NCBI GenBank assembly: GCA_040377305.1
Contig: JBEIPA010000035.1
Coordinates: 1-47,999, forward strand
Origin: Flavobacteriales bacterium
Lineage (GTDB): Bacteria > Bacteroidota > Bacteroidia > Palsa-965
DNA: 47,999 nt
Reading direction: 5' to 3'
This document shows positions 2,497 to 46,693 of this stretch, in pieces. Numbering within the stretch: the first letter of the stretch is position 1; every line of letters starts with the position of its first letter. The notes under the pieces are model-generated. The model made no database searches. It worked only from the letters and a program-made list of their open reading frames with translations, and was not told the origin of the DNA. Position numbers and translations under genes: made by a program.

Positions 2497-4053
2497 CTAC
2501 ATTTTAATCTCATCCTCATTCTTATTCAGAAAGTGATACTCTAAGAAATGGTACGATGAAACTGCTTTCACATTTACCGGGCGACCGAATTTCTTTTTCC
2601 ACTTCGCACGCTGAGAATTCCAGAACCAACCTTTTGTGAGGTATGCTTCGAGGTACGGATGCACACAAAGCGTTACCATGGGTTCATTCTGTTCTTTCAG
2701 GATGTAGCGCAAGTTATTTTCAATCTGATCGACGATAAGTACGCTCGATTGAATTAAGCCTGTGCCACCGCATGTCGGACATTTCTCAGCCGTATCGATG
2801 TTCATCTCCGGACGAACGCGTTCGCGGGTGATCTGAACAAGACCGAATTTGCTCGGCGGAAGAATCGTGTGTTTAGCACGATCAGTTTTCATTTCATCGC
2901 GCAGCTTGTTGTAAAGCAGCTTGCGGTTGTTCGGAGAATGTAAATCGATGAAATCGACAACAATGATTCCGCCCATATCGCGCAAACGCAACTGGCGTGC
3001 AACTTCTGCAGCTGCTTCGAGATTCACATCCAGCGCATTCGTTTCCTGGTCGTTGCTCGACTTGGAACGATTGCCGCTGTTAACGTCAACTACGTGCAGT
3101 GCTTCTGTATGCTCAATGATGAGATAAGCGCCGCTCTTCATGGTAATGGTTTTACCGAAGAGTGCTTTGATCTGCTTGTCTATGCCCGTAGCTTCGAAAA
3201 TGGGCGTATTCCCTTTGTGCAGTTTCAGGATTTTCTCCTTGTCGGGCGCAATGGTTTGCAGTAATTCTTTTGTTTCTTCAAACATGCGCTCATCATTAAT
3301 ATGGATGGCACTGAATGAAGCGTTAAGCATATCGCGCAGGATAGCAGAGGTGCGGTTCAGCTCTCCAAGTACACGGAGAGGCGGTTTCGCCGTTGTGAGT
3401 TGTTCGAAACAAGTGTTCCACTTACTCACAAGATCGTTCATGTCGGTATCGAGTTCAGCAACTCCTTTTCCTTCCGCTACTGTGCGGACAATCACTCCGA
3501 AATTTTTCGGTTTGATGGACTGGATAAGTCGTTTCAATCGTTCACGTTCTTCGCTGCTCTTTATCTTTTGAGATACAGAGACTTTGTCAGCGAAAGGAAT
3601 CAGAACGATATACCTGCCTGCAAGAGACAATTCGGAGGTGATACGCGGACCTTTTGTTGAAATAGGTTCTTTCGCAACCTGTATAAGGACAGGTTGATCG
3701 CTCTGGAGCACATTAGAGATCTTTCCATCTTTCTGGATGTCTTGCTCGAGCTTGAAGTACGCCAGTGCAGCATGTTTCTGCTTGCCTGTTACCGTCATGC
3801 GGACGTACTTATTTAATGAAAGGACCTGCGGACCGAGATCGAAATAATGCAGGAAGGCATCTTTCTCATAACCCACATCTACGAAAGCGGCATTGAGCCC
3901 CTGCATCACCTTGCGCACACGACCTAAGTAGATATCGCCCACTGCGAACTGCGTGTTGGTTTTCTCTCTGTTGAGTTCAACCAAACGCTTGTCGCTAAGT
4001 AGTGCGATCACCACTTCAGATCCTGATGCATCAATGATCAGTTCGTTAGACAC
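2497..4053 (-). CDS. rng: Ribonuclease E/G family (Rne/Rng)
   Basis: S1 domain GDIYLGRV...AAFVDVG, catalytic-region motifs DVNSG and LRLRDMGGIIVVDFID, and a CPTC zinc link. GTG start. Confidence 0.95.
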   Translation of the reverse strand: MSNELIIDASGSEVVIALLSDKRLVELNREKTNTQFAVGDIYLGRVRKVMQGLNAAFVDVGYEKDAFLHYFDLGPQVLSLNKYVRMTVTGKQKHAALAYFKLEQDIQKDGKISNVLQSDQPVLIQVAKEPISTKGPRITSELSLAGRYIVLIPFADKVSVSQKIKSSEERERLKRLIQSIKPKNFGVIVRTVAEGKGVAELDTDMNDLVSKWNTCFEQLTTAKPPLRVLGELNRTSAILRDMLNASFSAIHINDERMFEETKELLQTIAPDKEKILKLHKGNTPIFEATGIDKQIKALFGKTITMKSGAYLIIEHTEALHVVDVNSGNRSKSSNDQETNALDVNLEAAAEVARQLRLRDMGGIIVVDFIDLHSPNNRKLLYNKLRDEMKTDRAKHTILPPSKFGLVQITRERVRPEMNIDTAEKCPTCGGTGLIQSSVLIVDQIENNLRYILKEQNEPMVTLCVHPYLEAYLTKGWFWNSQRAKWKKKFGRPVNVKAVSSYHFLEYHFLNKNEDEIKM

Positions 4054-26591: not shown

Positions 26592-26647
26592 TTCATCTAA
26601 CCTTAACCTCTCATTAACAGCAAGGCAATCCAAAGAAAATACTTTCG
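26592..26647 (+). promoter_or_regulatory. Putative Pho-box promoter of the second response regulator
   Basis: TTCAT (26592), TTAAC (26603) and TTAAC (26614) in 11-bp phase. The -7-like TACTTTCG is at 26640. Confidence 0.7.
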
Positions 26648-26668: not shown

Positions 26669-27358
26669 GTGAAAGAGAAAGATATTTTCCGTCTGTTGGT
26701 TGTTGACGATGATGAACACATCCTGTTATCGTTAAAAGGGATTTTCGAAGCGGAAGGTTTCAACGTAGTGTGTGCCGACAACGGACGCGAAGCTATTGAC
26801 ATTGCGAAAAAGTTTCAGCCTCATTTGGTGATTCTCGACGTGATTATGCCGGGAATGGATGGAATTGAAATCTGTCACGAACTGCGAAACATCCCAACTC
26901 TTCAGAAAAGCCTGATTGCATTCTACACTGCACGTGGTGAAGACTACTCGCAAATTGCAGCGTTCTCAGCGGGTGCGGATGACTATATCATCAAGCCATC
27001 GAAGCCGGGAGTGCTGGTCATGCGAATCAAAGCATTGCTGAAACGAAACAAACTAAAAGAGCTTTCGACGAATATTCAGTCGGGCAACATTCGGATTGAT
27101 CGCGAGCGTTACATCGTTTTCAAAGGCACAGAAGAAATTACTTTACCCCGAAAAGAATTCGAACTGCTGGCACTCATGCTGGCTACTCCACGTAAGGTTT
27201 TCACACGACAGGAAATTTATCGTGAAATCTGGGGAGCAGAATTCGGTGATAAGAACCGCACCATTGACGTTCATGTGAGAAAACTGCGCGAGAAAATCGG
27301 CGAAGAGTTTATCAAGACCGTAAAGGGAATCGGATATTGCTTTGAGGCTGCGGCCTGA
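26669..27358 (+). CDS. OmpR/PhoB family response regulator, paralog of 33875-34558
   Basis: Receiver motifs VVDDD, LDVIMPGMDG and GADDYIIKP. wHTH motifs LPRKEFELL, RTIDVHVRKLREK and TVKGIGY. Confidence 0.93.
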   Translation: MKEKDIFRLLVVDDDEHILLSLKGIFEAEGFNVVCADNGREAIDIAKKFQPHLVILDVIMPGMDGIEICHELRNIPTLQKSLIAFYTARGEDYSQIAAFSAGADDYIIKPSKPGVLVMRIKALLKRNKLKELSTNIQSGNIRIDRERYIVFKGTEEITLPRKEFELLALMLATPRKVFTRQEIYREIWGAEFGDKNRTIDVHVRKLREKIGEEFIKTVKGIGYCFEAAA

Positions 27359-27632
27359 TACTACCCAATAATTCTTCACCACAAAGTTCACGAAGGCACA
27401 AAGAATGTGCATGGTGCTGTTGTGCGATATTGATGCAACTTGAGTGCGCTTTGAGGCTGCGGCCTGATACAATCCAAAAATTATTGACCACGAAGTGCAC
27501 TAAGACACAAAGAAATGTGATTGGTGGTGGTGTGCGATATTGATTCAACTTGAGTGCGCTTTGAGGTTGCGGTCTGATACTACCCAATAATTCTTGACCA
27601 CAAAGTTCACGAAGGCACAAAGAATGTGATTG
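27339..27632. repeat. Tandem array of about 2.7 units with 109-110-bp period
   Basis: GCTTTGAGG(C/T)TGCGG(C/T)CTGATAC starts at 27339, 27448 and 27558. Units contain ACCACAAAGTTCACGAAGGCACAAAG-like motifs. Confidence 0.92.
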
Positions 27633-27693
27633 ATGAAACTAACTGGGCGAGGATGTGAGACGGGCGAGCTCTATGGTTAGCAAGCAGCGCAAC

Positions 27694-27727
27694 AAAAAAG
27701 GCGCCCCCGTTTCCGGAAGCGCCTTTT
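27694..27727 (-). terminator. Intrinsic terminator of the T9SS gene, likely bidirectional
   Basis: AAAAAAGGCGC ... GCGCCTTTT hairpin 20 bp downstream of the stop at 27747. Confidence 0.8.
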
Positions 27728-27746: not shown

Positions 27747-30503
27747 CTATTTCGCGATTACTACGCGCACTGTATTCGTTACATCTCCTGTTGTCACCTG
27801 GAAGAAATAAATTCCGTTTGACCACTCAGAAACGTTGTACTGAAGGTTGTTTGAACCTGCAGCCATATCGTGATTTTCATTCACCAATACTTTTCCTGAC
27901 ATATCGAAAGCAACTACTGTTACATCAGCTCCTGCGTTCAGGTTGATTGACATATTCAGTGTTTCGTTTGCCGGATTCGGATAAAGTGTCATTGATGAAA
28001 AATCTGATGCTTCTTCAACTCCAACTGCAAACTGAACAACTGTAGTAGTAGTATCTGAACATCCGTTCGAACCTGTTACGATCAACGTTACTGTGTACGT
28101 TCCGTTTGAAGTGTACAGGTGTGATGGGTTCTGCGCAGTAGACTGAGAGAAGTCACCGAAATCCCATGCATAAACTGTTCCGCCAGCAGATGTGTTGTTG
28201 AAATCAACAATTGAGTTAGTCCAGGAATAGTTGAACGCTGCTGTTGGTGCAGTGAGTGCTGTTACTGTTACTGGTGTTGAAGCTCCTGTACCGTTGCAAG
28301 GATCAGCATTCGTAACTGTTACGAAGTAAACACCAGCTGCACTTACTGTGATAGACTGTGTAGTCTCGCCATTTGGAGCCCACAGGTACGAATCAGAAGG
28401 TGATGCAGTCAATACAACTGTTTCGCCAGGACAAAGTGCTGTTGCACCTGCTACCTGTACTGTTGGTGCCGGAGCAGCGCTTGCGCTTACTGTAGTAGTA
28501 GATGAAGTTGCAGAACAACCGTTACCATCTGTGTAAGTAACTGAGTATGTACCTGAATTCATTACAGTGATGTCCTGTGTAGTTTCAGAATTCGGCGCCC
28601 ATACGTTACCTGTTGTCTGACTTGAAGAAAGTACTACACTGTCACCAGTACAGAAAGTAGTTGGTCCGTTTGCAGAAATTGTTGGTGCAGTTGGATTTGG
28701 ATTCACAGTTACAACTGTAGGTAATGAAGTTGCAGTACAACCGTTCAGGTCAGTATAAGTTACATCGTAAGAACCTGAAGAGTTCACGTTGATTGAAGGT
28801 GTGATTGCACTGTTGCTCCACTGAATTCCTGTTGCCTGTGAAGATGTCAACGTTACGTTTCCACCGTTACAGAATGTAGTTGTTCCGCTGTTCGAAATTG
28901 TTGGTGCAGTTGGAGTTGGGTTAACTGTAACCGCAATTGCATTTGAAGTTGCAACACATCCGTTAGACTTCCAAACAGTAACGCTGTACGATCCGGAAGT
29001 TGTAACGTTTGTAGTTTGTGTTGTTGCTCCATCGCTCCAAAGGAAAGTTGCTCCAGGATAAGAACCAGCATCAAGTGTTACTGAACTTCCCTGACAGAAA
29101 GTAGTTGAACCTTGTGCAGTTGCAGTAACTGTGAAAGCATTGTTGGTAGCCGCAAGGTATGGCTCGTTCTGTGGATCCCAGCTTGCCCAGCAATCAGTCC
29201 AGTCGGTTGTACCGAAAGCACCACGATAAGTAGTCGGTGTGAACCAAGGATCATTTACGTATGCGTCTGTGTAAGCCGCACCTGTTAGAAGTGGCGAACC
29301 TGCACTAAGCGTAAGATCAGGTGCAGCCAAACTAAGGTTGTTGATCATCAATGCAGCAGTTGTTCCAACTGTTGTGTTGTTGTAACCTGCAGTATTGTAC
29401 CAGGTGTTAATATTGAATGCGCCACTCGTGTTGTTTGGATTTGCAGCAGATGTTGCAGCAAGAGTGTCTGTCATTTCAACCAGAACTGTGTTCTCATAGC
29501 GCAGAGTGTCACCTGAGCAATTCAGGTGTGTTGCCGTATTCTCAATCAACAATCCTGTAGGATATCCTGCATAAACAGAGTTGAAAATACTGGTCTCTGA
29601 ATTACGACGTAGGTGCAATGCACGACGATAGAGTGAATTCACTACACCAGGGAAGCAATAAGGCCCGAAAATTGAAACGTTAGAAAAAATCGGGCGCGTT
29701 ACCGGAGTACGTGCACTTCCTGAAGCATCATTATCTGATTCATGTCCATTTGATCCTGATTGGTCAGCGATGTTAGGATCGCGCAATGCAACTGCCCACT
29801 GGATCTTTCCGCGGAAACCATAATCTGTATCGAAATCATCGTCCCAACCGCGAAGAGCGATCAAGTGACGGCAATTTACAGTTCCACCGAACCACTCGAA
29901 TGAATCATCACCCGAATAAGAAACCTGAACATAGTCAACCACTGTTTTGCGACCTACACCGCAAAAAGTGATTCCGTTGATTTCAGAGTTTGGCTGGAAT
30001 GCTACACCTGGATACTCAACACGTACGTGACGAAGAACGCCTGAGCTGTCGTCGTCATTCGGAGTTAAACCTCCACCGTAAATTGTTCCAACGCCACCTT
30101 CAACAATACCTTCTCCGTCTGTTGTTCCGTTCGCAATACTAGCTGCCCAATTGGTGCTTGCACGTCCTGCGATAATAAGTCCGCCCCAGTCACCATAAGA
30201 ACGCTGTCCAACTGATTTTTGTGATGTGAACACGATCGGTTGATCAACTGTTCCATCTGCAATCAGTTTTGCATCGCGCTCGATGATAAGCGTTCCTTTA
30301 GTTGCGAAATCTCCTTTAATGACTGTGCCTGGTTGAATCGTTACCGTTACACCGGCTTTCACGTAAACCCACCCGTCGAGCAAATAGATGTTGTTATTTG
30401 TCCAGGTTTCGTTTGCAGTAATGTTTCCCGACTTGATGATCTGCGCATTCAGTCCGAATGCTCCTGCTATCATCAGTGTACAGGCGAGTAATACTTTTCT
30501 CAT
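27747..30503 (-). CDS. Large T9SS-secreted protein: N-terminal beta-helix-like domain, Ig-like repeats, PKD domain, CTD
   Basis: GDWGGLII, DDSSGVLRHVRVEY, DDSFEWFGG and DDDFDTDYG motifs. Four TTFC/SGSYSVT-type repeats, a PKD motif (WDFGD...NPSHLY) and a CTD (LYPNPA). Confidence 0.88.
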   Translation of the reverse strand: MRKVLLACTLMIAGAFGLNAQIIKSGNITANETWTNNNIYLLDGWVYVKAGVTVTIQPGTVIKGDFATKGTLIIERDAKLIADGTVDQPIVFTSQKSVGQRSYGDWGGLIIAGRASTNWAASIANGTTDGEGIVEGGVGTIYGGGLTPNDDDSSGVLRHVRVEYPGVAFQPNSEINGITFCGVGRKTVVDYVQVSYSGDDSFEWFGGTVNCRHLIALRGWDDDFDTDYGFRGKIQWAVALRDPNIADQSGSNGHESDNDASGSARTPVTRPIFSNVSIFGPYCFPGVVNSLYRRALHLRRNSETSIFNSVYAGYPTGLLIENTATHLNCSGDTLRYENTVLVEMTDTLAATSAANPNNTSGAFNINTWYNTAGYNNTTVGTTAALMINNLSLAAPDLTLSAGSPLLTGAAYTDAYVNDPWFTPTTYRGAFGTTDWTDCWASWDPQNEPYLAATNNAFTVTATAQGSTTFCQGSSVTLDAGSYPGATFLWSDGATTQTTNVTTSGSYSVTVWKSNGCVATSNAIAVTVNPTPTAPTISNSGTTTFCNGGNVTLTSSQATGIQWSNSAITPSINVNSSGSYDVTYTDLNGCTATSLPTVVTVNPNPTAPTISANGPTTFCTGDSVVLSSSQTTGNVWAPNSETTQDITVMNSGTYSVTYTDGNGCSATSSTTTVSASAAPAPTVQVAGATALCPGETVVLTASPSDSYLWAPNGETTQSITVSAAGVYFVTVTNADPCNGTGASTPVTVTALTAPTAAFNYSWTNSIVDFNNTSAGGTVYAWDFGDFSQSTAQNPSHLYTSNGTYTVTLIVTGSNGCSDTTTTVVQFAVGVEEASDFSSMTLYPNPANETLNMSINLNAGADVTVVAFDMSGKVLVNENHDMAAGSNNLQYNVSEWSNGIYFFQVTTGDVTNTVRVVIAK

Positions 30504-30536
30504 TGTGTTTTGCTTTAAGTGTGTTATTTACAGGAG

Positions 30537-30613
30537 CAAAACTACCAGAGCACTATGATGCGAGTGTGAATGCGGTCTTATTGAAATGTTACCGTTGGTT
30601 ACGTTGATGTTAA
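30537..30613 (-). promoter_or_regulatory. Putative Pho-box promoter of the T9SS gene
   Basis: Minus strand: TTAAC (30613), GTAAC (30602), GTAAC (30592), ATAAG (30581), TTCAC (30570), then a perfect -7 TAGTTTTG at 30544. Confidence 0.7.
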
Positions 30614-30784
30614 GTCCGCTTGTCATTCCTCGGTATGCCTTAACAATTCCCCAACTTGCTCCTCAAACATTTGAGCCTACTCAGCCTGACAAGCAACAAC
30701 GGTTGTCAGATCGAGTAAGCCCGACAGTCTGTAAAGCCACTTCTGGGATAATTCAGGAGTATTCAGGAATGAGCTAACAGGTTG

Positions 30785-33694
30785 CTAGTTCTTCCTCGGT
30801 TCCAATAAACGAACCGTTACACCAATCGTAGCATAAGTCCCTCTTTTGAAAGAAGACATGCGATTATCTGTGATACGATCGAGGTTTCCATCTCCTTCTT
30901 TATCCTGGAGCAACAAAGTTTCCTGGTTGAAGAGATCAATCACGTTCAAACGAAGATCAACGTTCTTTCTTTCACCGAAGGTTTTAACAATAGAAAGATC
31001 AACCTGATGACGAGGCATCTCATAAACTTCAGGAACGTCAAGAACACCAGCAACAACTACTCGTGGACCAATCACATTGTACATCACGTTAAACTGAAAA
31101 CCAGCTGAATCGTTTTGGTAATACAATCCCGCATTCACAATCCAAGGTGATTGCCCCATCATAGGACGTTGCACATCCTGCGGACCTGTGTAGTTATCGG
31201 ATAATGTAATTTCACTATGGATGTATGCCGCGTTGGCTACAACCGAAATGTGACGGATGATCGGAAGATTTACACTGTCGAGTTTCTTACGGACTTCAAT
31301 CTCCACACCGTAGCTTGTTGCTGACGGTGCGTTCGACCATGTGAAACTGCGAATACCGCCACTACCTACTCCTGGAACGAAATACATCTCGATCGGATTT
31401 TCGAAACGCTTGTAGAAAGCACCAACAGTGATGTTCTCCCCGTTACGTGGATAAAACTCCCAACGCAAATCGATGTTATCAATGGTTGCCGTTTTCAAAG
31501 AATCATTTCCTTCGTTAATTGAGTTGGAAATGAAGTCGTAGAAATACAGCGGAGCGATTTCTCTGAACTCCGGACGATTTACCGTTTTGCCGTATGCTGC
31601 GCGAACCAACATTCGGTCGGTGAGATTAAAGGCCACGTTTACTGAAGGAAGAATCCGCAATTCATCGTTCTTAACAATTACGGTGTCCTCACTGTATTTG
31701 TTACTATTGAGTTGCTGCACATTCTTCTCTGCACGCGCGCCCATACTTACGCGAATACGTTCATGTGAAAGCCCATCAAACTGACCTTTGAACTTTCCGA
31801 GAGGAAGTACAACCATTGCATAACCAGCAATCAGTTTATTGGATGCGATATAAGAATCAGCTTTCTTCGTGTCTTCGTCAATCGCAAATCCACTGTCGTT
31901 GTTGATGTTCTCCGGCATGAAAATAGAATCAATCGGCAGAGTAAGAATTTCCGGATGTTGAAATAGCGCCACGTTGCCGTACTTATATCCGATGTTACGT
32001 ACTCCAAATTCACGCTCTTTCATTTCCGCGTATGCTCCGGCTTTCACAGTAAATGTGTAACTCTCTTTTTTCGCCTCTTCATTGGCACCAATTGTAATTT
32101 TCTGTTCGAAATTCACAGCACCCGCGTATGCGTGCTCATTCATGTTCACGTGCAATCGACTAAGGAAAAACGGAACTGCACTCGACGGAACATACAAATA
32201 GTACGGATCATTTGGAGCAGCACCGAATGGTCGTGAGTAACGTGCACGTTTCCAATCCGGATCATTGCGGGTTCCCATTGAGTAACCAAGCGTATAATCC
32301 AATTTTGTACGGTCATCATTGAACTCATTCTGTCCTCCCAGTTGACCGGTATAAATGCTACGCTGTACATAGTGAAATGAATACTCACGAAGCTGCTCGC
32401 CCGTTTCATAATTATCCCCCGAACGTATTGAGGTTTCATTATCTCCGAGTTGGTTGTACAGGTTCTTGAATGTGATGCGATGTTGACCTTTGTCTCCATA
32501 ACGCAAAGCATTGTTCTGTACGATTGCCAGACGAACACTGTTTACGTAATTTTCATCATTGTAATCAACCAGCGTATCGGCGATTCCTGTATTCGGATCG
32601 TACACGTAAAAATCATGCTTCCGTACTGCCCAATAGGAATTGGTGTAGGAATAATTAACCGCGGTTATATTTCCGAACTGATACTTCGGTTTGCTCAAGC
32701 GATACGAGTACGTTGCATTAAATCGATGATCCGGAAGTGCATTGCCATCTGTCATGGTCCAGGTATTGCCTAACGACTGACCGGCAGCTTGAAGCGCAAC
32801 GGGTGTAGTGAGATTTCTCACGTTTGCCGGAAAACCTGCCGGCAGCTCGCGCGCTCCTAACCCCATTCCTAACACATCACCTTTCTGAGGTGTGTTCAGA
32901 AGGAAAGGTTGAAAGGTTGTACCGTTTCGGTAACCGAACTGGTAGTTAACAACCAATGAGGTTGCATCCGGAATTTCTGTAGTTGTCAAGCGCACAACAC
33001 CACCTGCAAATTCTCCCGGCATGTCTGGCGATGCAGATTTGTAAACCATGAAACGATCAATCATGGATGCAGGAATGAGGTTGAACGAAAATGCTTTAAC
33101 ATCCGATTCCACAGACGGAGCCATCACGCCATTCAGCATTACTGCATTATATCTTTCAGATAATCCACGAACAATGATGAAACGGTTGTCGACGATAGTT
33201 ACACCGGGAATTTTTCTCGCAACACCAGTTGCGTCGGGAACAGGTGATGCTTTGATTTCCTCTTTAGTTTGTCCGTCAGTTGCAGTGTTACCTTCCTGAA
33301 CCTCTTTAAGCATCGATCCGGTAGTCCCCGTAATTTTGAAATCCACGATCTCCACTACCCCACCCGAATCACCTGCAATAATTTCCAGGTGGTCAGACAA
33401 AGGAAAATCAACAGTCGTCGTTTTTCCGGCAACCACAACAACAGTTTTAGCCGAAACCGGGATATAACCGGTGTACTGACAACGGACATTGTAAGTTCCT
33501 GCAGGCAGACTAATCTTAAATTTTCCGTCGAAATCGGCCTGAGCACCATAACGGGTGCTATCGACACTAATAATTGCACCAAAAGCTGGTGCATCGGCAT
33601 TATCTTGTTCGACGACAGTTCCGCTAATGGTACCATTCTGAGCAGCAACCGTTAACGACAATACAGAAAGCAGGAAAACAAATAAATTACGCAT
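30785..33694 (-). CDS. TonB-dependent receptor with N-terminal carboxypeptidase-regulatory-like domain
   Basis: ADFDGKFKI, plug IPGVTI...IVRGLSERYN and RPEFREIAP, DNIDLRWEFYP barrel motifs. Confidence 0.93.
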   Translation of the reverse strand: MRNLFVFLLSVLSLTVAAQNGTISGTVVEQDNADAPAFGAIISVDSTRYGAQADFDGKFKISLPAGTYNVRCQYTGYIPVSAKTVVVVAGKTTTVDFPLSDHLEIIAGDSGGVVEIVDFKITGTTGSMLKEVQEGNTATDGQTKEEIKASPVPDATGVARKIPGVTIVDNRFIIVRGLSERYNAVMLNGVMAPSVESDVKAFSFNLIPASMIDRFMVYKSASPDMPGEFAGGVVRLTTTEIPDATSLVVNYQFGYRNGTTFQPFLLNTPQKGDVLGMGLGARELPAGFPANVRNLTTPVALQAAGQSLGNTWTMTDGNALPDHRFNATYSYRLSKPKYQFGNITAVNYSYTNSYWAVRKHDFYVYDPNTGIADTLVDYNDENYVNSVRLAIVQNNALRYGDKGQHRITFKNLYNQLGDNETSIRSGDNYETGEQLREYSFHYVQRSIYTGQLGGQNEFNDDRTKLDYTLGYSMGTRNDPDWKRARYSRPFGAAPNDPYYLYVPSSAVPFFLSRLHVNMNEHAYAGAVNFEQKITIGANEEAKKESYTFTVKAGAYAEMKEREFGVRNIGYKYGNVALFQHPEILTLPIDSIFMPENINNDSGFAIDEDTKKADSYIASNKLIAGYAMVVLPLGKFKGQFDGLSHERIRVSMGARAEKNVQQLNSNKYSEDTVIVKNDELRILPSVNVAFNLTDRMLVRAAYGKTVNRPEFREIAPLYFYDFISNSINEGNDSLKTATIDNIDLRWEFYPRNGENITVGAFYKRFENPIEMYFVPGVGSGGIRSFTWSNAPSATSYGVEIEVRKKLDSVNLPIIRHISVVANAAYIHSEITLSDNYTGPQDVQRPMMGQSPWIVNAGLYYQNDSAGFQFNVMYNVIGPRVVVAGVLDVPEVYEMPRHQVDLSIVKTFGERKNVDLRLNVIDLFNQETLLLQDKEGDGNLDRITDNRMSSFKRGTYATIGVTVRLLEPRKN

Positions 33695-33719: not shown

Positions 33720-33775
33720 CAAAGAAACTCCGGTGAGTTAACGGCTGCGTTACCTCCATATCAACATCATGTTAA
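33720..33775 (-). promoter_or_regulatory. Putative Pho-box promoter of the TonB-dependent receptor
   Basis: Minus strand: TTAAC (33775), TTGAT (33764), GTAAC (33753), then the -7-like TTTCTTTG at 33727. Confidence 0.65.
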
Positions 33776-33813
33776 CTGAACAAGACCAATTCAGGGATAC
33801 GACCTGAATATCC

Positions 33814-33874: not shown

Positions 33875-34558
33875 ATGATGAATAATAGTGAACATAAAAT
33901 TCTCCTTGTAGACGACGAACCGGATATTCTGGAATTCCTCAGTTATAATCTGAAGAAAGAAGGTTACCAGGTTTATACCGCATTAACAGGAGAAGAAGGA
34001 ATTACAGTCGCGAAAAAAGAGATGCCAAATCTCGTTTTGCTGGATGTGATGATGCCCGGAATCGACGGAATGGAAGTTTGTCGTGAGTTGCGGGCTGTGC
34101 CAGGAATGGACGGAGTGGTAATTGCGTTCCTCACGGCACGTAGCGAAGATTACTCGCACATTGCGGGATTCGAAGCGGGTGCAGATGATTATATCAACAA
34201 ACCGATCAAACCACGCGTCCTGCTGAGTCGCATCAAAGCGCTTCTGCGTCGAAGTGGTAACGGAAATGAATCCACTGCTGTTGATGTTGGCAAACTGAGA
34301 ATCGATCGCGAGAGCTATCTCGTGTTTAAAGACGGAGCAGAAATATCTCTTCCGCGTAAAGAATTCGAATTGCTTTCATTGCTTGCTTCAAAACCCGGAA
34401 AAGTTTTCGCACGGGACGAAATCTTAAATAAAGTCTGGGGTGATGAAGTGGTTGTTGGCGATCGCACTATCGACGTACACATCCGCAAGCTTCGTGAAAA
34501 ACTCGGAGAAGAGTTTATTCGCACCGTGAAAGGTGTAGGCTACAAGTTCGAATTTTAA
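33875..34558 (+). CDS. phoP: PhoP/PhoB-like response regulator
   Basis: LLVDDEPDILEFLSYNL, LDVMMP and RTIDVHIRKLREK. It lies directly upstream of a PhoR-like kinase in a phosphate-gene neighbourhood. Confidence 0.85.
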   Translation: MMNNSEHKILLVDDEPDILEFLSYNLKKEGYQVYTALTGEEGITVAKKEMPNLVLLDVMMPGIDGMEVCRELRAVPGMDGVVIAFLTARSEDYSHIAGFEAGADDYINKPIKPRVLLSRIKALLRRSGNGNESTAVDVGKLRIDRESYLVFKDGAEISLPRKEFELLSLLASKPGKVFARDEILNKVWGDEVVVGDRTIDVHIRKLREKLGEEFIRTVKGVGYKFEF

Positions 34559-34663: not shown

Positions 34664-35710
34664 TTGAAGCAACTGTCTCTTCGCCTTCTTGCCTTGTACG
34701 CCGCCCTCATCGTGGGTCTTGGTGCTTTCGTTGTTGCGCTGATTACAGAGTACATTATTTCAGATCGCGTTGAATGGATTCCTCTTGTTGTTGGTGGAAT
34801 TCTAAGCATGGTGCTTACGTGGGTTTTGTTTCTCTGGTTTACGAAAAGATTCATCAGTAATCGTATTCGTGCACTGTACAAAACCATTTACAACGTCAAG
34901 CTTCGTGATAACGAAGAACTGAGATTACCCGGAAGTGGTGATGAACTCATCAACAAGATTCAGCAGGATGTAATTGAATGGGCGGCTACTCGTTCAACGG
35001 AGATCGAAGATTTGCGTAAGCTCGAAATCTATCGCAAAGAATTTCTCGGCAACGTTTCTCACGAACTGAAGACGCCGATTTTCAATATTCAGGGCTATGT
35101 AAGCACATTGCTCGAAGGTGGTATTGAAGATCCTGAAATCAACAGGAAATATCTGGAGCGCACGGAGAAGAGTGTGGAGCGCATGATCACCATCATTCAG
35201 GATTTGGAATCAATTTCCAGAATTGAGTCGGGAGAGATGGCACTTGACCTCGAGAATTTCGATCTCGGAAATCTTGCGCAGGATATTGTTGAAGCGCAGG
35301 AGATGAAAGCAAGCAAGCGAAACATCAAACTTCGCATGCACGAAAACCTGAATGTCATTCGTGTGAATGCCGATAAAGACCGCATTCGTCAGGTGCTCAC
35401 AAATCTCGTTGTGAATTCTATCAAATACGGAAAAGAAAACGGCGATACAGAAGTGCGTCTCTTCGATATGGAAGATCACGTACTGGTTGAAGTTTCCGAC
35501 AACGGAATTGGCATAGGCAAAGAACATCTTCCACGATTGTTCGAACGTTTTTACCGCGTCGACAAAGGACGTTCACGCGATCAGGGCGGTACAGGTCTGG
35601 GGCTTGCCATCGTGAAACACATTCTCGAAGCGCATGGACAGACCATTAATGTGCGTTCCAGCGAAGGTGTGGGATCTACATTTTCTTTTACATTGCGCAA
35701 AGCGAAGTAG
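34664..35710 (+). CDS. phoR: PhoR-like sensor histidine kinase
   Basis: Two TM segments, H-box EFLGNVSHELKTP, NLVVNSIKY, DNGIGI, RLFERFYRVDK and GGTGLGLAIVKH. TTG start. Confidence 0.85.
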   Translation: MKQLSLRLLALYAALIVGLGAFVVALITEYIISDRVEWIPLVVGGILSMVLTWVLFLWFTKRFISNRIRALYKTIYNVKLRDNEELRLPGSGDELINKIQQDVIEWAATRSTEIEDLRKLEIYRKEFLGNVSHELKTPIFNIQGYVSTLLEGGIEDPEINRKYLERTEKSVERMITIIQDLESISRIESGEMALDLENFDLGNLAQDIVEAQEMKASKRNIKLRMHENLNVIRVNADKDRIRQVLTNLVVNSIKYGKENGDTEVRLFDMEDHVLVEVSDNGIGIGKEHLPRLFERFYRVDKGRSRDQGGTGLGLAIVKHILEAHGQTINVRSSEGVGSTFSFTLRKAK

Positions 35711-35861: not shown

Positions 35862-37136
35862 ATGAAAAAACTCTACTTCACCGCTGTACTCGCATTGTTT
35901 GGTGTTTACCTAAACGCACAGCAACAACAATGCGCAACCATGGATGCCCTCAACCAGCAAATGCAGAATCCTGCGATTGCTCAGCGCATTCAAAATTCAC
36001 GTGCTAATGCTGCAGCCTGGCGCGCTCAACATCCGGAAGAAATCAGAAGCACTGCTCCTGTGGTTACCATTCCGGTAGTTGTTCACGTGCTGTACAAAAA
36101 CGCCGCACAGAACATTTCAAACGCACAGATCTATTCTCAGATCGCCATTCTAAACGCCGATTACCAGCGACTGAACGCAGACACGATCAATACACCAACT
36201 GCATTCGATTCGCTCGCTGCAGATATTCAGGTTGAATTTTGTCTCGCAACCGTTGATCCGAATGGAAACCCTACGGATGGCATTACGCGCACTTCAACTG
36301 TGGGTGGACAGATATTCGGTTATTTCAGTCCGCTCGGCGACGATGCAAAATTCGATTCCCTCGGTGGAAAAGATTGCTGGCCAACTGATGAGTACCTGAA
36401 CATTTGGGTTTGTGAATTGTTCCCGGGACTTCTCGGATACGCGCAATTTCCTGGTGGCGCGCCTGCTACCGATGGTGTGGTAGTGACTTACACTGCGTTC
36501 GGAAACACAGGCACCGTTACAGCTCCATCTACCTTGGGAAGAACTGCAACACATGAAGTTGGTCACTGGATGGGATTGTATCACATCTGGGGCGATGATC
36601 AGGATTGCACAGGAAGTGATTCAATTCCTGACACCCCGAATGCAGATCAGGCTTCAGCGAGTGATTGCCAGGTAAACCTGAACAGCTGCAGCAACGAAGA
36701 TCCATATTGGGGAATCAGCGACCCGAATGATATGGTGCAGAACTATATGGACTACTCGCACGATTCCTGCATGAACATGTTTACGCTCGGGCAAAAAACA
36801 CGCATGCATTCGTTTCTGTACACCGATCCGGCTCGCTTTGCATTGTTCACTTCTCCCGGCGGATGTAACGGAGTTGGAATACAGGAAGCAACATTCGGTC
36901 AATACTTCAATGTTTATCCGAATCCAACAGACGACATTGTAAACGTGAACTACTTCGGATCAGTTAGCCCAACCATGACAATCGAAGTATTAGACGTTAC
37001 CGGAAAAACAGTTGCTGCATTCACGACTACAGCGTACACCTACACTGTTGATCTGTCAACATTGCCAGCTGGTGTTTACACCATGAAATTCATTGGAGTA
37101 ACAGAAGTAGCAACGAAGAAAATTGTATTGCAATAA
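35862..37136 (+). CDS. M43 (pappalysin/ulilysin-like) zinc metalloprotease with T9SS CTD
   Basis: Propeptide Cys (QCATM), HEVGHWMGLYH, Met-turn NYMDY, and CTD VYPNP. Confidence 0.93.
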   Translation: MKKLYFTAVLALFGVYLNAQQQQCATMDALNQQMQNPAIAQRIQNSRANAAAWRAQHPEEIRSTAPVVTIPVVVHVLYKNAAQNISNAQIYSQIAILNADYQRLNADTINTPTAFDSLAADIQVEFCLATVDPNGNPTDGITRTSTVGGQIFGYFSPLGDDAKFDSLGGKDCWPTDEYLNIWVCELFPGLLGYAQFPGGAPATDGVVVTYTAFGNTGTVTAPSTLGRTATHEVGHWMGLYHIWGDDQDCTGSDSIPDTPNADQASASDCQVNLNSCSNEDPYWGISDPNDMVQNYMDYSHDSCMNMFTLGQKTRMHSFLYTDPARFALFTSPGGCNGVGIQEATFGQYFNVYPNPTDDIVNVNYFGSVSPTMTIEVLDVTGKTVAAFTTTAYTYTVDLSTLPAGVYTMKFIGVTEVATKKIVLQ

Positions 37137-43438: not shown

Positions 43439-43494
43439 TTAACACAACCTTAACATGGGAGTAATTTGTGGATAATCCTGTACAGGTTCCTTTG
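43439..43494 (+). promoter_or_regulatory. Putative Pho-box promoter of the porin
   Basis: TTAAC (43439), TTAAC (43450), GTAAT (43461), then the -7-like TTCCTTTG at 43487. Confidence 0.72.
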
Positions 43495-43535: not shown

Positions 43536-44762
43536 ATGCGCACTCTGAACATCATTGTGATTCTATTTCTGACATTACTGTTCAATGTTAAACTACGTGC
43601 ACAAATTGACACCAACACAAAGAAAGTTCCGACCAAAAAAGAACACTGGTACGATAAAGTAAGCTTCCGCGGATATACTCAAGTACGCTACAGCCGATTG
43701 GGTGAAACCAATTCCGATCTTAAGCTTAATCAGGACAAAAGTGTTGGCGACAAGGGTGGATTTCTCATTCGCCGCGGACGTCTTGTTTTAAGTGGTGATG
43801 TTCATCCACGAGTATTCGTTTACATTCAGAATGATTTCGGGGTAACTGCTGCTGCATCCATTTCCAACACGGTTCTTCACTATACCGGTTTGCGCGACGC
43901 ATACTTTGATGTGGCTCTTGATTCAGCTAAAACATTTCGCTTGAGAATCGGTCAGAGTAAAGTACCGTTTGGCTTCGAGAATATGCAGTCTAGTCAAAAT
44001 CGTTTACCACTTGACCGGGCAGAAGCATTAAATAGTGCGGTTGTAGGTGAACGCGATCTCGGAGCATTCTTCTATTGGGCGCCGACGAAAAGAAGACAGC
44101 TTTTCAAATCTCTGGTAGACGATGGATTAAAAGGCTCGGGTGATTATGGTTGTTTCGGTTTAGGAGTTTATAATGGCCAGACTATTAATAAAGCAGAAAC
44201 GAATAACAACCTCCATGTAATTGGAAGATTTACGTGGCCGTTCAACCTGAAGTCGCAAACATTTGAAATCGGAATGCAGGGTTACACCGGATTCTATACC
44301 ATGGAAAATCTTTCCTCAGGTACCGGAGTAACATCTGATAAAAACTACCTCGATAAACGTGTCGCAGCTACATTCGTGATGTACGCCAAACCATTTGGAA
44401 TTCTAGCAGAGTATAATATTGGAAAATCACCGGTGTATGATCCTTCCGGCGATTCAATCAAAGTCGATGATCTTGAAGGCGGTTTTGTGACCATCCACTA
44501 TATGATAAGGTTCAGCAAATGGAACCAGGTAATTAATCCGTATGCCCGGGCTCAATACTACTCAGGTGGATTCAAAACTGAAAAAGACGCTGCTCACTTT
44601 AAAGTGAACGATTATGAATTCGGTGTGGAATATCAGGTAATGAAGAACTTTGAATTGACTGTGGCTTATCTGATGGCTAATAGGCGCATTGAAGACAAGT
44701 CAAACGAAACGAATTATCAGTCCGGAAACGTCATCCGCATTCAGTTCCAATTCAATTACTAG
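43536..44762 (+). CDS. OprO/OprP-family phosphate-selective porin
   Basis: FLIRRGRL, LRDAYFD, RIGQSKVPFGFEN and ERDLG motifs. C-terminal aromatic beta strand QFQFNY. Confidence 0.85.
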   Translation: MRTLNIIVILFLTLLFNVKLRAQIDTNTKKVPTKKEHWYDKVSFRGYTQVRYSRLGETNSDLKLNQDKSVGDKGGFLIRRGRLVLSGDVHPRVFVYIQNDFGVTAAASISNTVLHYTGLRDAYFDVALDSAKTFRLRIGQSKVPFGFENMQSSQNRLPLDRAEALNSAVVGERDLGAFFYWAPTKRRQLFKSLVDDGLKGSGDYGCFGLGVYNGQTINKAETNNNLHVIGRFTWPFNLKSQTFEIGMQGYTGFYTMENLSSGTGVTSDKNYLDKRVAATFVMYAKPFGILAEYNIGKSPVYDPSGDSIKVDDLEGGFVTIHYMIRFSKWNQVINPYARAQYYSGGFKTEKDAAHFKVNDYEFGVEYQVMKNFELTVAYLMANRRIEDKSNETNYQSGNVIRIQFQFNY

Positions 44763-44810
44763 CCAACAACCTGATTATCAATGTGTACTATCCCGTAGCA
44801 TATTGACTTG

Positions 44811-44855
44811 GTAACAATTCCTTAACACATCCAGAAAGTGCCCCAATTACCTTTA
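44811..44855 (+). promoter_or_regulatory. Putative Pho-box promoter of DUF47-pit
   Basis: GTAAC (44811) and TTAAC (44822), then the -7-like TACCTTTA at 44848. Confidence 0.68.
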
Positions 44856-44881
44856 CGGTGCTTAAATCAACATAAATAATT

Positions 44882-45520
44882 ATGGGTTTCCTTCAATTTC
44901 TCCTTCCAAAAGACCGAAAATTTTTCCCGCTCTTCAATCAGGCCACTGAGAATCTTCTTAAAGGATCTAAAGTCCTTGTTGAGTTGGTTAATACGAGTAG
45001 TGCGGAAAAGCGCAAAGAGCTTGTTAAGGAAATCGAGCACATTGAACATACCGGCGACAATATCACGCACATGATTTTCAATGAGCTCAGCCGAAACTTC
45101 ATTACACCATTCGATCGCGAAGACATGCACGCGCTGGCTTCCGACATCGATGACGTTCTTGATTTCATTCATGGTTCCGCAAAACGAATTGACCTGTACA
45201 AGATCACAGATAATCCGGAAGCAATTACCATGCTGGCCGATTGCATTCTCAAAGGTGCACTCGAACTCAACGTTGCTGTGAAGAATCTTGAGAACATGAA
45301 AAATGAAAACGTGATCAAAGAAGCTTGTGTGAAAATCAACAGCCTGGAGAATCACGCCGACGATGTATTCAACATGGGTATCGCACGACTTTTCGATGAA
45401 GAGAAAGATCCTATTCAGATCATCAAGTTGAAGGAAATACTTTCTGCGCTCGAAACAGCTACAGACAAGTGTGAAGATGCCGCGAACACAGTACAAACCA
45501 TTCTTATTAAGTACGCATAA
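44882..45520 (+). CDS. DUF47 (PhoU-like) Pit accessory protein
   Basis: EHTGDNIT...FITPFDREDM..LAS.IDDVLD, LENHADD and LETATDKCED. Confidence 0.93.
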   Translation: MGFLQFLLPKDRKFFPLFNQATENLLKGSKVLVELVNTSSAEKRKELVKEIEHIEHTGDNITHMIFNELSRNFITPFDREDMHALASDIDDVLDFIHGSAKRIDLYKITDNPEAITMLADCILKGALELNVAVKNLENMKNENVIKEACVKINSLENHADDVFNMGIARLFDEEKDPIQIIKLKEILSALETATDKCEDAANTVQTILIKYA

Positions 45521-45541
45521 AGTAAATCGGGCCTTCAACCT

Positions 45542-46693
45542 ATGATGCCATTACTCATAACCATCGTTGTACTTGCGATCATATTCGATCTGATCAATGG
45601 TTTCCACGATGCAGCAAACTCGATTGCGACTGTTGTTTCCACGAAGGTTCTCACACCATTTCAGGCAGTGGTCTGGGCTGCGTTTTTCAACTTTGTGGCA
45701 TTCTGGATTTTCGATCTGAAAGTTGCTGATACTGTTGCAAAAACTGTTCACAGCGACACCATCAATCTGAATGTAATTTTCGGCGGACTCATCGCTGCAA
45801 TTTTCTGGAACCTTCTCACCTGGTGGAAAGGAATTCCGTCGAGTTCATCACACACGCTCATTGGTGGATTTGCAGGAGCAGCGGTTGCGCATGCAGGGTC
45901 CTTTTCGGTAGTCAATCAGGAATCAATTATCAAAACCTTCCTGTTCATCTTCCTCGCTCCCATCATCGGAATGCTCATTGCATACATTCTCACGGTGATC
46001 ATCATTCACATCGCGAAGAATAGTATTCCATCGAAAGCAGAACGTTGGTTCCGAAGACTGCAACTGGTTTCTTCAGCAGCCTTCAGTATTGGTCACGGCG
46101 GATCAGATTCGCAGAAAGTAATGGGCATTATCGCAGCCGGACTTATCGTTTTCAATTCACATCAGGCTAAGATTGATCCGAACTTTCAGGTGGAAGAGTG
46201 GAATAAAATCGAATACGTTTACGAAGACGAATCCACAAAAGCGAAGGTGACAATTCCCGACGGAATGACGTATGCGGAGTACAAAACAGTTTACAAGGAA
46301 GAACACAATGCTTCTTTGAAAGAAAAGATCAAGCATATCCCAGGCTGGGTTCCTTTCATGTGTTATGCTGCAATTGCAATAGGTACCATGATGGGCGGAT
46401 GGAGAATTGTAAAAACCATGGGCACGAAAATTACCAAGGTTACTCCGCTCGAAGGTGTTGCTGCCGAAACTGCAGGTGCAATTACGCTCTTCGGAGTTTC
46501 ACAAGGACTGGGTGTTCCGGTTTCTACCACTCACACAATTACAGGTGCCATCATTGGCGTTGGAATGACGAAACGACTGAGTGCTGTTCGCTGGGGCGTG
46601 ACAACGAATCTGCTCTGGGCATGGATTCTCACAATTCCCGTTTCAGGACTGATCGGAGCACTTTCATACTTCGTGATCAGCTTGTTTATCTAA
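45542..46693 (+). CDS. pit: PiT family inorganic phosphate transporter
   Basis: NGFHDAANSIAT, GIPSSSSH, HGGSDSQK and PVSTTH signature motifs. Confidence 0.95.
   Translation: MMPLLITIVVLAIIFDLINGFHDAANSIATVVSTKVLTPFQAVVWAAFFNFVAFWIFDLKVADTVAKTVHSDTINLNVIFGGLIAAIFWNLLTWWKGIPSSSSHTLIGGFAGAAVAHAGSFSVVNQESIIKTFLFIFLAPIIGMLIAYILTVIIIHIAKNSIPSKAERWFRRLQLVSSAAFSIGHGGSDSQKVMGIIAAGLIVFNSHQAKIDPNFQVEEWNKIEYVYEDESTKAKVTIPDGMTYAEYKTVYKEEHNASLKEKIKHIPGWVPFMCYAAIAIGTMMGGWRIVKTMGTKITKVTPLEGVAAETAGAITLFGVSQGLGVPVSTTHTITGAIIGVGMTKRLSAVRWGVTTNLLWAWILTIPVSGLIGALSYFVISLFI

Follow-up and report, generated by a model that had tools for sequence, protein, structure and literature searches.

The window considered here, 47,999 nucleotides of contig JBEIPA010000035.1 from a Flavobacteriales bacterium (genome G000; 5.18 Mb, 99.99% complete), carries two neighbouring minus-strand genes, one for a TonB-dependent transporter (TBDT) and the other, 281 bp 3' of it, for a partner protein that appears to be exported by the type 9 secretion system (T9SS). 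The TBDT gene diverges from phoP-phoR, with 180 bp between it and phoP. The two genes very probably form a Pho-regulated phosphorus-scavenging pair. The pair, its link to inorganic phosphate (Pi) and the family of putative TBDT lids to which the partner belongs are already known; the new element is the anchor swap, in which a T9SS C-terminal sorting domain (CTD) replaces a lipoprotein anchor. The features of the two genes are as follows.

30785..33694, minus strand: non-SusC TBDT, 969 residues (open reading frame, ORF, and domain search)
27747..30503, minus strand: T9SS-tailed partner protein, 918 residues (ORF and domain search)
30444..30503, minus strand: Sec signal peptide of the signal peptidase I (SPI) type, residues 1-20 of the partner (sequence and relatives' N-termini)
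29148..30443, minus strand: beta-helix head, residues 21-452, Pfam PF28492 (profile and structure prediction)
28233..29138, minus strand: four Cys-paired immunoglobulin (Ig)-like repeats, residues 456-757, resembling the GhpA shaft (sequence and predicted fold)
28020..28232, minus strand: PKD domain, residues about 758-828 (PF18911, 51 bits)
27756..27986, minus strand: type A T9SS CTD, residues 840-916 (PF18962 and TIGR04183, above cut-off)

The signal peptide of the partner ends GLNA, with Q following, and has no usable lipobox. Its lone early cysteine is at position 8, within the signal peptide, and is missing in several close relatives; both its position and the relatives led us to reject the idea that Cys8 marks a mis-called lipoprotein. 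The partner lacks a lipoprotein (signal peptidase II) anchor and has an SPI peptide and a T9SS CTD in its place. The PKD match (773-822) and the CTD (840-916) exceed their Pfam cut-offs. With a Sec signal, a TIGR04183 CTD and T9SS machinery in the genome, where SprA and PorU genes are present, the sequence marks the partner as a type A T9SS cargo. The Ig-like repeats, each of about 75 residues with one Cys pair, are 39-56% mutually identical. The stalk is predicted as five all-beta modules (predicted local distance difference test score, pLDDT, 91; predicted template modelling score, pTM, 0.54) and matches the Ig shaft of GhpA, a grappling-hook protein (E 6e-22).

The transporter has a CarboxypepD_reg domain (22-99), a plug (137-232) and a barrel to about residue 963. 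Its plug and barrel include conserved basic residues, to which we give no weight here. It scores 29 bits against the SusC model TIGR04056, where the cut-off is 368, and is therefore not a SusC; its top NCBIfam match is TIGR01782, at 188 bits against a cut-off of 310. The domain search gave no SusD Pfam match for the partner. Synteny suggests a TBDT of the BT4055/Fjoh_0545 type. G000 has a single head and a single TBDT of these subfamilies, and 18 other TBDT matches were seen in the genome. ORF calls and domain searches thus confirm what a preliminary description, made from the DNA letters, had reported: a TBDT and a 918-residue T9SS partner without a lipobox, divergent from phoP-phoR.

The head carries PF28492 (Beta_helix_4), a family of 7,500 clusters at 50% identity, which was found in all 120 listed homologues; the best atlas matches were at 0.97. 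Of the Bacteroidia genomes drawn, 301 in all, 238 were positive for a head profile (counting one unpublished genome, G191), as were 24/24 genomes of the same genus (counting unpublished G012). Loci related to the window pair were labelled Bacteroidota almost throughout. Four (L001, L002, L022, L025) are titled Chryseobacterium or Synechococcus, at odds with their gene-tree position, and are probably mislabelled or mis-binned. We also noted five CTD-less lipoproteins (P0071, P0080, P0088, P0096, P0118) with the database name ‘T9SS C-terminal target domain-containing protein’, which seems to have been wrongly carried over from homologues that do have a CTD.

Synteny, fold annotation and a bridge homologue place the head in the ElpS/Fjoh_0546/BT4056 family of putative TBDT lids. 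The bridge is a 394-residue lipoprotein from a pstS-phoR-phoP-TBDT locus of a Flavobacterium-type genome, which is 39% identical to the head over 212 residues (E 9e-32). The closest known locus is Pus4 of Flavobacterium johnsoniae, with a glycosyltransferase, oprP, phoR, phoB, the TBDT Fjoh_0545 and the lipoprotein Fjoh_0546 (FII); the last two are strongly Pi-induced (PMC8115612). The window resembles Pus4 in gene order, in these neighbours and in the pectin-lyase-like fold of the partner. However, the Pus4 partner is a lipoprotein of about 400 residues, whereas the window partner has 918, with an SPI peptide, Ig stalk, PKD domain and T9SS CTD. Bacteroides thetaiotaomicron BT4055/BT4056 is likewise a non-SusC TBDT and a pectin-lyase-fold partner with predicted contact between them. 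BT4056 is 40% identical to Fjoh_0546, ElpS-related and listed as a putative lid, and AlphaFold predicted contacts with BT4055, few of them of high confidence (Price et al., bioRxiv 2023.03.17.533168). Pairs of this type are conserved jointly across 621 genera, but the lids are defined throughout as lipoproteins, and the whole text of that preprint (bioRxiv 10.1101/2023.03.17.533168) does not mention a T9SS form.

ElpS of Caulobacter crescentus (CC0170), beside the TBDT CC0171, is also a surface protein next to a transporter, and is reported to be Pi-induced, surface-anchored and later shed (PMC2996285). Unlike the window genes, which both have Pho-like boxes, ElpS is a lipoprotein shed by a protease dependent on the type 2 secretion system and sits beside a constitutive TBDT. 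The working model of a TBDT with a lid importing organophosphorus under Pi limitation is shared with PusCD1 and PusCD2 of F. johnsoniae, which belong to the SusC/SusD families, have an unrelated fold and stack Trp on inositol; they have been solved as phosphoinositol transporters, in a preprint that calls Pus3 and Pus4 hard to predict (bioRxiv 10.64898/2026.09.03.749221). The statement in the preliminary description that homologous heads are Pi-induced, TBDT-adjacent lipoproteins with no assigned function agrees with these sources (PMC8115612, PMC2996285, bioRxiv 2023.03.17.533168).

The T9SS architecture is not a rarity, as had first been supposed: our homologue survey found T9SS forms widespread in Bacteroidia. 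Among 182 head ORFs from the fetched loci, a set that includes duplicates and is skewed to the query's relatives, so that its counts are not class-wide frequencies, 99 have a terminal CTD and 61 were called lipoproteins. We corrected 24 anchor calls by hand before building trees. On a quick, unrooted tree of 147 head cores, which does not give the direction of anchor change, the lipoprotein/SPI label changes 14 times, at least five of these changes being forced by starred branches. With near-duplicates removed, 61/73 CTD forms, 52/57 lipoproteins and 6/16 other SPI forms have a TBDT on the same strand no more than 1 kb away. All 18 loci fetched from the window's own genus have the CTD form and none the lipoprotein; as G000 has a single head, this shows that the CTD form substitutes for the lipoprotein and is not an addition to it. 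One genome, G104, carries both anchor forms. Open-access literature yielded no T9SS-sorted member, repeated anchor switching, permuted form or multi-head form.

The stalk is optional. The 61 complete single-head CTD forms comprise 28 stalkless proteins of at most 600 residues, five of 601-700 and 28 longer ones; the spacers of 32 long relatives scanned are unrelated and include SprB, PKD_6, Ig_7 and Big_2 repeats. To be held away from the cell on a stalk, as first suggested, is thus not essential to the T9SS forms. In 26 CTD ORFs the head is circularly permuted, with the C-terminal YRGAF..W..W..DPQN segment moved to the N-terminus. This permutation implies that the two ends of the head are close together, so that the stalk likely leaves the head at the end where the lipid linker of the lipoprotein forms attaches. 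Permuted heads (L185, L192, L200, L031, L086, L202 and others), many with a CTD, probably derive from tandem two-head genes. Two more from a Flavobacterium-type genome (L092, L093) have an SPI peptide and neither lipobox nor CTD, and form a separate clade. Four further SPI heads without a CTD (L140, L157, L158, L187), beside which no adjacent TBDT was seen, may represent a third anchor type; we take their C-terminal tails to be dockerin- or EF-hand-like.

We considered whether the T9SS form is forced by loss of the surface-lipoprotein system. SusC (TIGR04056) and SusD (PF07980) were not found in G000 or in six genus relatives. Among T9SS-form genomes 11 of 43 had SusD, as against 22 of 37 among lipoprotein-form genomes; the count covers 80 of 86 genomes of known form, and seven of the 43 come from one genus and so are not independent. 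We rejected this explanation, as the difference is no more than a trend: SusD is missing from 15 lipoprotein-form genomes and present in 11 T9SS-form genomes.

Regulation by phosphate is suggested by TTAACA-like units at 11-bp spacing, which precede both the head gene and the TBDT gene. The candidate elements in the window are listed here, the last two lines without an assigned strand.

30576..30613, minus strand: Pho-box-like array 5' of the partner gene, four TAAC-like units at 11/10/11 bp spacing (motif rank 3 of 4,054)
30537-30544, minus strand: TAnnTTTG, a Bacteroidota promoter element, 5' of the partner gene (sequence)
33737..33776, minus strand: Pho-box-like array 5' of the TBDT gene, in the TBDT/phoP spacer (motif rank 5 of 4,054)
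about 26603-26630: box of a second PhoP-like regulator (score 17.4, which would rank 3)
43439-43466 and 44811-44838: boxes of oprP and of DUF47-pit (motif ranks 1 and 7)

The core motif of PhoP in Riemerella is TTTAACA (PMC9603813). In upstream regions of related loci, where kin are not independent, the double unit TTAACA-N5-TTAACA (at least 10/12 matches) precedes 53/102 head genes, 63/80 TBDT genes, 38/61 phoP-like genes and 4/4 oprP genes, as against about 8% of shuffles and none of the control upstreams (0/4 trmB, 0/8 glycosyltransferase). A matrix was seeded with TTAACA, trained only on the regions 5' of 93 TBDT genes of other genera and then used to score the 4,054 genes of G000: oprP came first, the head gene third, the TBDT gene fifth, DUF47 seventh and phoP 34th, with a PafA-like gene at 3,064. 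By these sequence statistics the Pho-like boxes are beyond chance, and the earlier claim that each gene of the pair has its own putative box stands. A sigma-70 promoter scan was uninformative (8 sites against 11.5 expected), and TAnnTTTG was not enriched across the window (19 against 33.5). High scores were also seen for two receiver-only genes (C9:80138 and C50:174737) and for three uncharacterised genes that are candidate regulon members: C11:131973 (a 136-residue lipoprotein-like protein), C21:2610 (448 residues) and C12:33820 (a lone CarboxypepD_reg).

The head and the TBDT have also moved together. In five genus members both cluster with another family's genome (support 100), whereas phoP and the stalk remain genus-like. 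Approximately unbiased (AU) tests, with 16 close loci and the window set against 10 chosen outgroups and designed after the identities were known, rejected genus monophyly for the TBDT (p 1.7e-6) and for the head (p 1.8e-14). For phoP the genus forms one side of a branch (support 64) and no rejection is needed. As the head and TBDT were replaced while their flanks stayed, the pair appears to have moved as a unit. When the barrel (246-963) was co-folded with head residues 80-361 the score was 0.44, against 0.00 for the best of three controls; runs had at least 77% of contacts in common, and the partner pLDDT was at least 80. In calibration 116 of 157 solved pairs reached the mark, as did 2 of 215 mismatched ones; 18 of the solved pairs and both mismatches lay at 0.60 or below. 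On balance we think it somewhat more likely than not that the head docks physically on the TBDT.

The AlphaFold2 model of the head is a right-handed beta-helix (pLDDT 96.8, pTM 0.95), and the motifs DDSFEWFGG, DDDFDTD and HESDND are all in the sequence. Its best fold matches are NosD (Z 23.2, root mean square deviation, rmsd, 3.0, 269 residues aligned), tailspikes (22), AlgE4 (21.7) and Pel9A (21.1), at 8-15% identity with none standing out. The head shares this fold with NosD, with Pel9A of family PL9 and with tailspike beta-helices (Z 21-23), a likeness of fold in which shared function is not shown. Foldseek gave nothing that reached E 0.001 (TM at most 0.32), though a match in an unlisted family may exist; a sequence search of the PDB left the head unmatched, and a profile search of the PDB matched only CTDs. 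Across 487 head domains, conservation reaches at least 95% at ten residues (E174, N176, D199, D200, E203, D221, D222, D225, E255, D257), and D227 and R/K299 come just behind. Conservation of the ten does not differ between the 90 SPI heads and the 57 lipoprotein heads. They are spaced on successive rungs; from this, and from the Asp209/233/237 calcium site of Pel9A (PMC10992409), we infer that the ten residues line one groove and bind cations. The groove has no invariant lysine; R/K299 is the best-conserved basic residue (90% K/R). The Asp-rich beta-helix head of the preliminary description is thus upheld by the model and by a near-invariant acidic cluster, and the fold search matched no characterised enzyme beyond the generic beta-helix.

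These results suggest the following mechanism. At low Pi, active PhoP would bind the boxes 5' of both genes; the boxes rest on sequence statistics, and induction is extrapolated from the F. johnsoniae and Caulobacter homologues. The partner would be exported by Sec and the T9SS, and by analogy with P. gingivalis PorU may then cut the CTD and tie the end of the stalk to lipopolysaccharide (LPS), though release is possible too; both anchored and released type A cargo is known (PMC12618676). In the groove, nine Asp/Glu residues and Asn176 would hold Ca or Mg ions, which with Arg299 may bridge a phospho-ester or short polyphosphate. The lid is predicted to dock on the adjacent TBDT and hand over the phosphorus-bearing ligand. 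TonB-driven import would come next, then hydrolysis, for which the PafA-like enzyme is the probable agent, and finally Pi uptake through Pit. Of four phosphatase families sought in G000 only a PafA-like one was found; PhoA, PhoD and PhoX were searched for in that genome and not found. That a T9SS-exported, likely LPS-tethered lid binds its ligand with the help of bridging cations and delivers it to the TBDT is, to our minds, evenly balanced between true and false. The wider idea, that Bacteroidia have repeatedly re-routed the lid and that the T9SS form is an LPS-tethered ‘fishing lid’ that captures a phosphorus ligand with a reach of up to about 20 nm, sometimes two-headed or permuted, and that swings back onto the TBDT as a lid of non-lipoprotein type, is a tentative one that we would not yet favour.

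A number of observations weigh against this picture. No TBDT lies within 1 kb of 12/73 T9SS forms and 10/16 other SPI forms, although some of these loci end at contig edges. Two heads occur in 18/182 head ORFs, and more in some database proteins; a 1:1 lid needs none of these. In loci of at least 11 kb a Pho gene is near 23/59 CTD forms and 16/27 lipoprotein forms; the phoPR link of the family is not universal. The genome-wide excess of boxes over shuffles is small (11 sites against 7 with a threshold of 14 bits, 7 against 2 with one of 16), and other high scorers in G000, an AraC regulator, a ribonucleotide reductase small chain, a major facilitator superfamily transporter and receiver-domain genes, are not evident phosphorus genes. 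The tie to ElpS, Fjoh_0546 and BT4056 runs through synteny, fold annotation and the bridge homologue, not through direct alignment. BT4055 and BT4056 mutants have no fitness phenotype (bioRxiv 2023.03.17.533168). ElpS is released by cleavage, its TBDT is not co-regulated, and the part of the report available shows no uptake phenotype (PMC2996285). Replacement of adjacent genes could reflect one recombination tract without any binding. The co-fold, a check that the preliminary description had proposed, stands well above its controls and is weak nonetheless, having used truncated chains and yielded no interface. Finally, an acidic groove repels phosphate unless cations, here putative, bridge the two.

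The head could instead be a metal-dependent hydrolase of a phosphodiesterase, polyphosphatase or nuclease-like kind, breaking down polymeric phosphorus outside the cell and leaving the products to the TBDT. The conserved groove is active-site-like, beta-helices are also used by enzymes, ElpS overexpression increased phosphatase activity in the supernatant (PMC2996285), and the absence from G000 of detectable PhoA, PhoD and PhoX would leave room for such an enzyme. However, the same report detected no p-nitrophenyl phosphate (pNPP) phosphatase activity with purified ElpS, whether refolded or immunoprecipitated, and no drop on deletion; the top fold match, NosD, is a non-enzyme partner with tailspikes close behind. 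The hydrolytic head of the preliminary description is thus unsupported, and we consider this reading unlikely. A partner released or displayed on its stalk as a scavenger or adhesin, like a hemophore shuttle or a binder of Ca- or Fe-phosphate particles, would touch the TBDT briefly or never. ElpS is shed (PMC2996285), RemA of F. johnsoniae, a type A cargo, is anchored and later released (PMC12618676), some family members have several heads or long spacers of adhesin type, the stalk is like the shaft of GhpA, and an acidic groove might suit a Ca-rich mineral face. Against this, it is the head that was replaced with the TBDT and not the stalk, 28/61 single-head T9SS forms have no stalk, and the co-fold scored above all controls; we rate it level with the hydrolase.

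A PL9-like polysaccharide lyase or glycan binder, with the pair importing glycans such as phosphorylated cell-wall polymers, is the least probable of these readings by some distance. Pel9A is among the best fold matches (rmsd 3.7, 302 residues aligned, 15% identity); its Ca ligands Asp233/Asp237 (PMC10992409) have the same i/i+4 spacing as D199/E203 and D221/D225, which is suggestive but not a residue-level alignment, and Lidbury et al. proposed glycan binding for FI/FII. The empty Foldseek search and the missing invariant lysine, the catalytic base in PL9, stand against it, while the failure to find SusC and SusD in G000 makes glycan foraging an unlikely lifestyle. No full-length PL9 was found in the 61 genomes searched for profile comparison. 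We return, then, to a Pho-linked phosphorus-scavenging pair, the earlier suggestion which the boxes and the Pus4-like locus support.

The remaining features around the pair are listed below; the Pho island also includes a PF04101 glycosyltransferase gene, found by domain search.

33875..34558, plus strand: phoP/phoB response regulator (best matches TIGR02154 and NF053854, both under cut-off; F. johnsoniae phoBR synteny)
34664..35710, plus strand: phoR histidine kinase (domain search)
26669..27358, plus strand: second PhoP-like response regulator, convergent on the partner gene (domain search)
43536..46693, plus strand: oprP/O porin, DUF47 and Pit transporter genes, same Pho island (domain search)
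27696..27727, no strand assigned: hairpin in the gap separating the partner gene from the convergent second regulator, a likely terminator (sequence)

The second PhoP-like regulator is without a kinase and lies directly 3' of the head gene in most loci of the genus. Three degenerate direct repeats of about 110 bp (27339-27635) begin at its 3' end. Between phoR and the glycosyltransferase lies an M43 metalloprotease gene with a T9SS CTD (35862-37136) and no Pho box (rank 1,196); a CTD gene of similar size occupies this gap in several relatives.

Members of this family are among the most abundant exoproteins of Pi-starved Flavobacterium. As the T9SS forms make plain, the lid can do without its lipid anchor, and its functional core is the conserved acidic groove. 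These forms also offer a soluble, well-folded domain of about 430 residues, with ten mutable residues, for approaching the substrate question. If docking is real, the lipoprotein-based definition of TBDT lids needs to be broadened. In a genome in which SusCD, PhoA, PhoD and PhoX were not detected, the pair may serve as the chief inducible way for organic phosphorus across the outer membrane.

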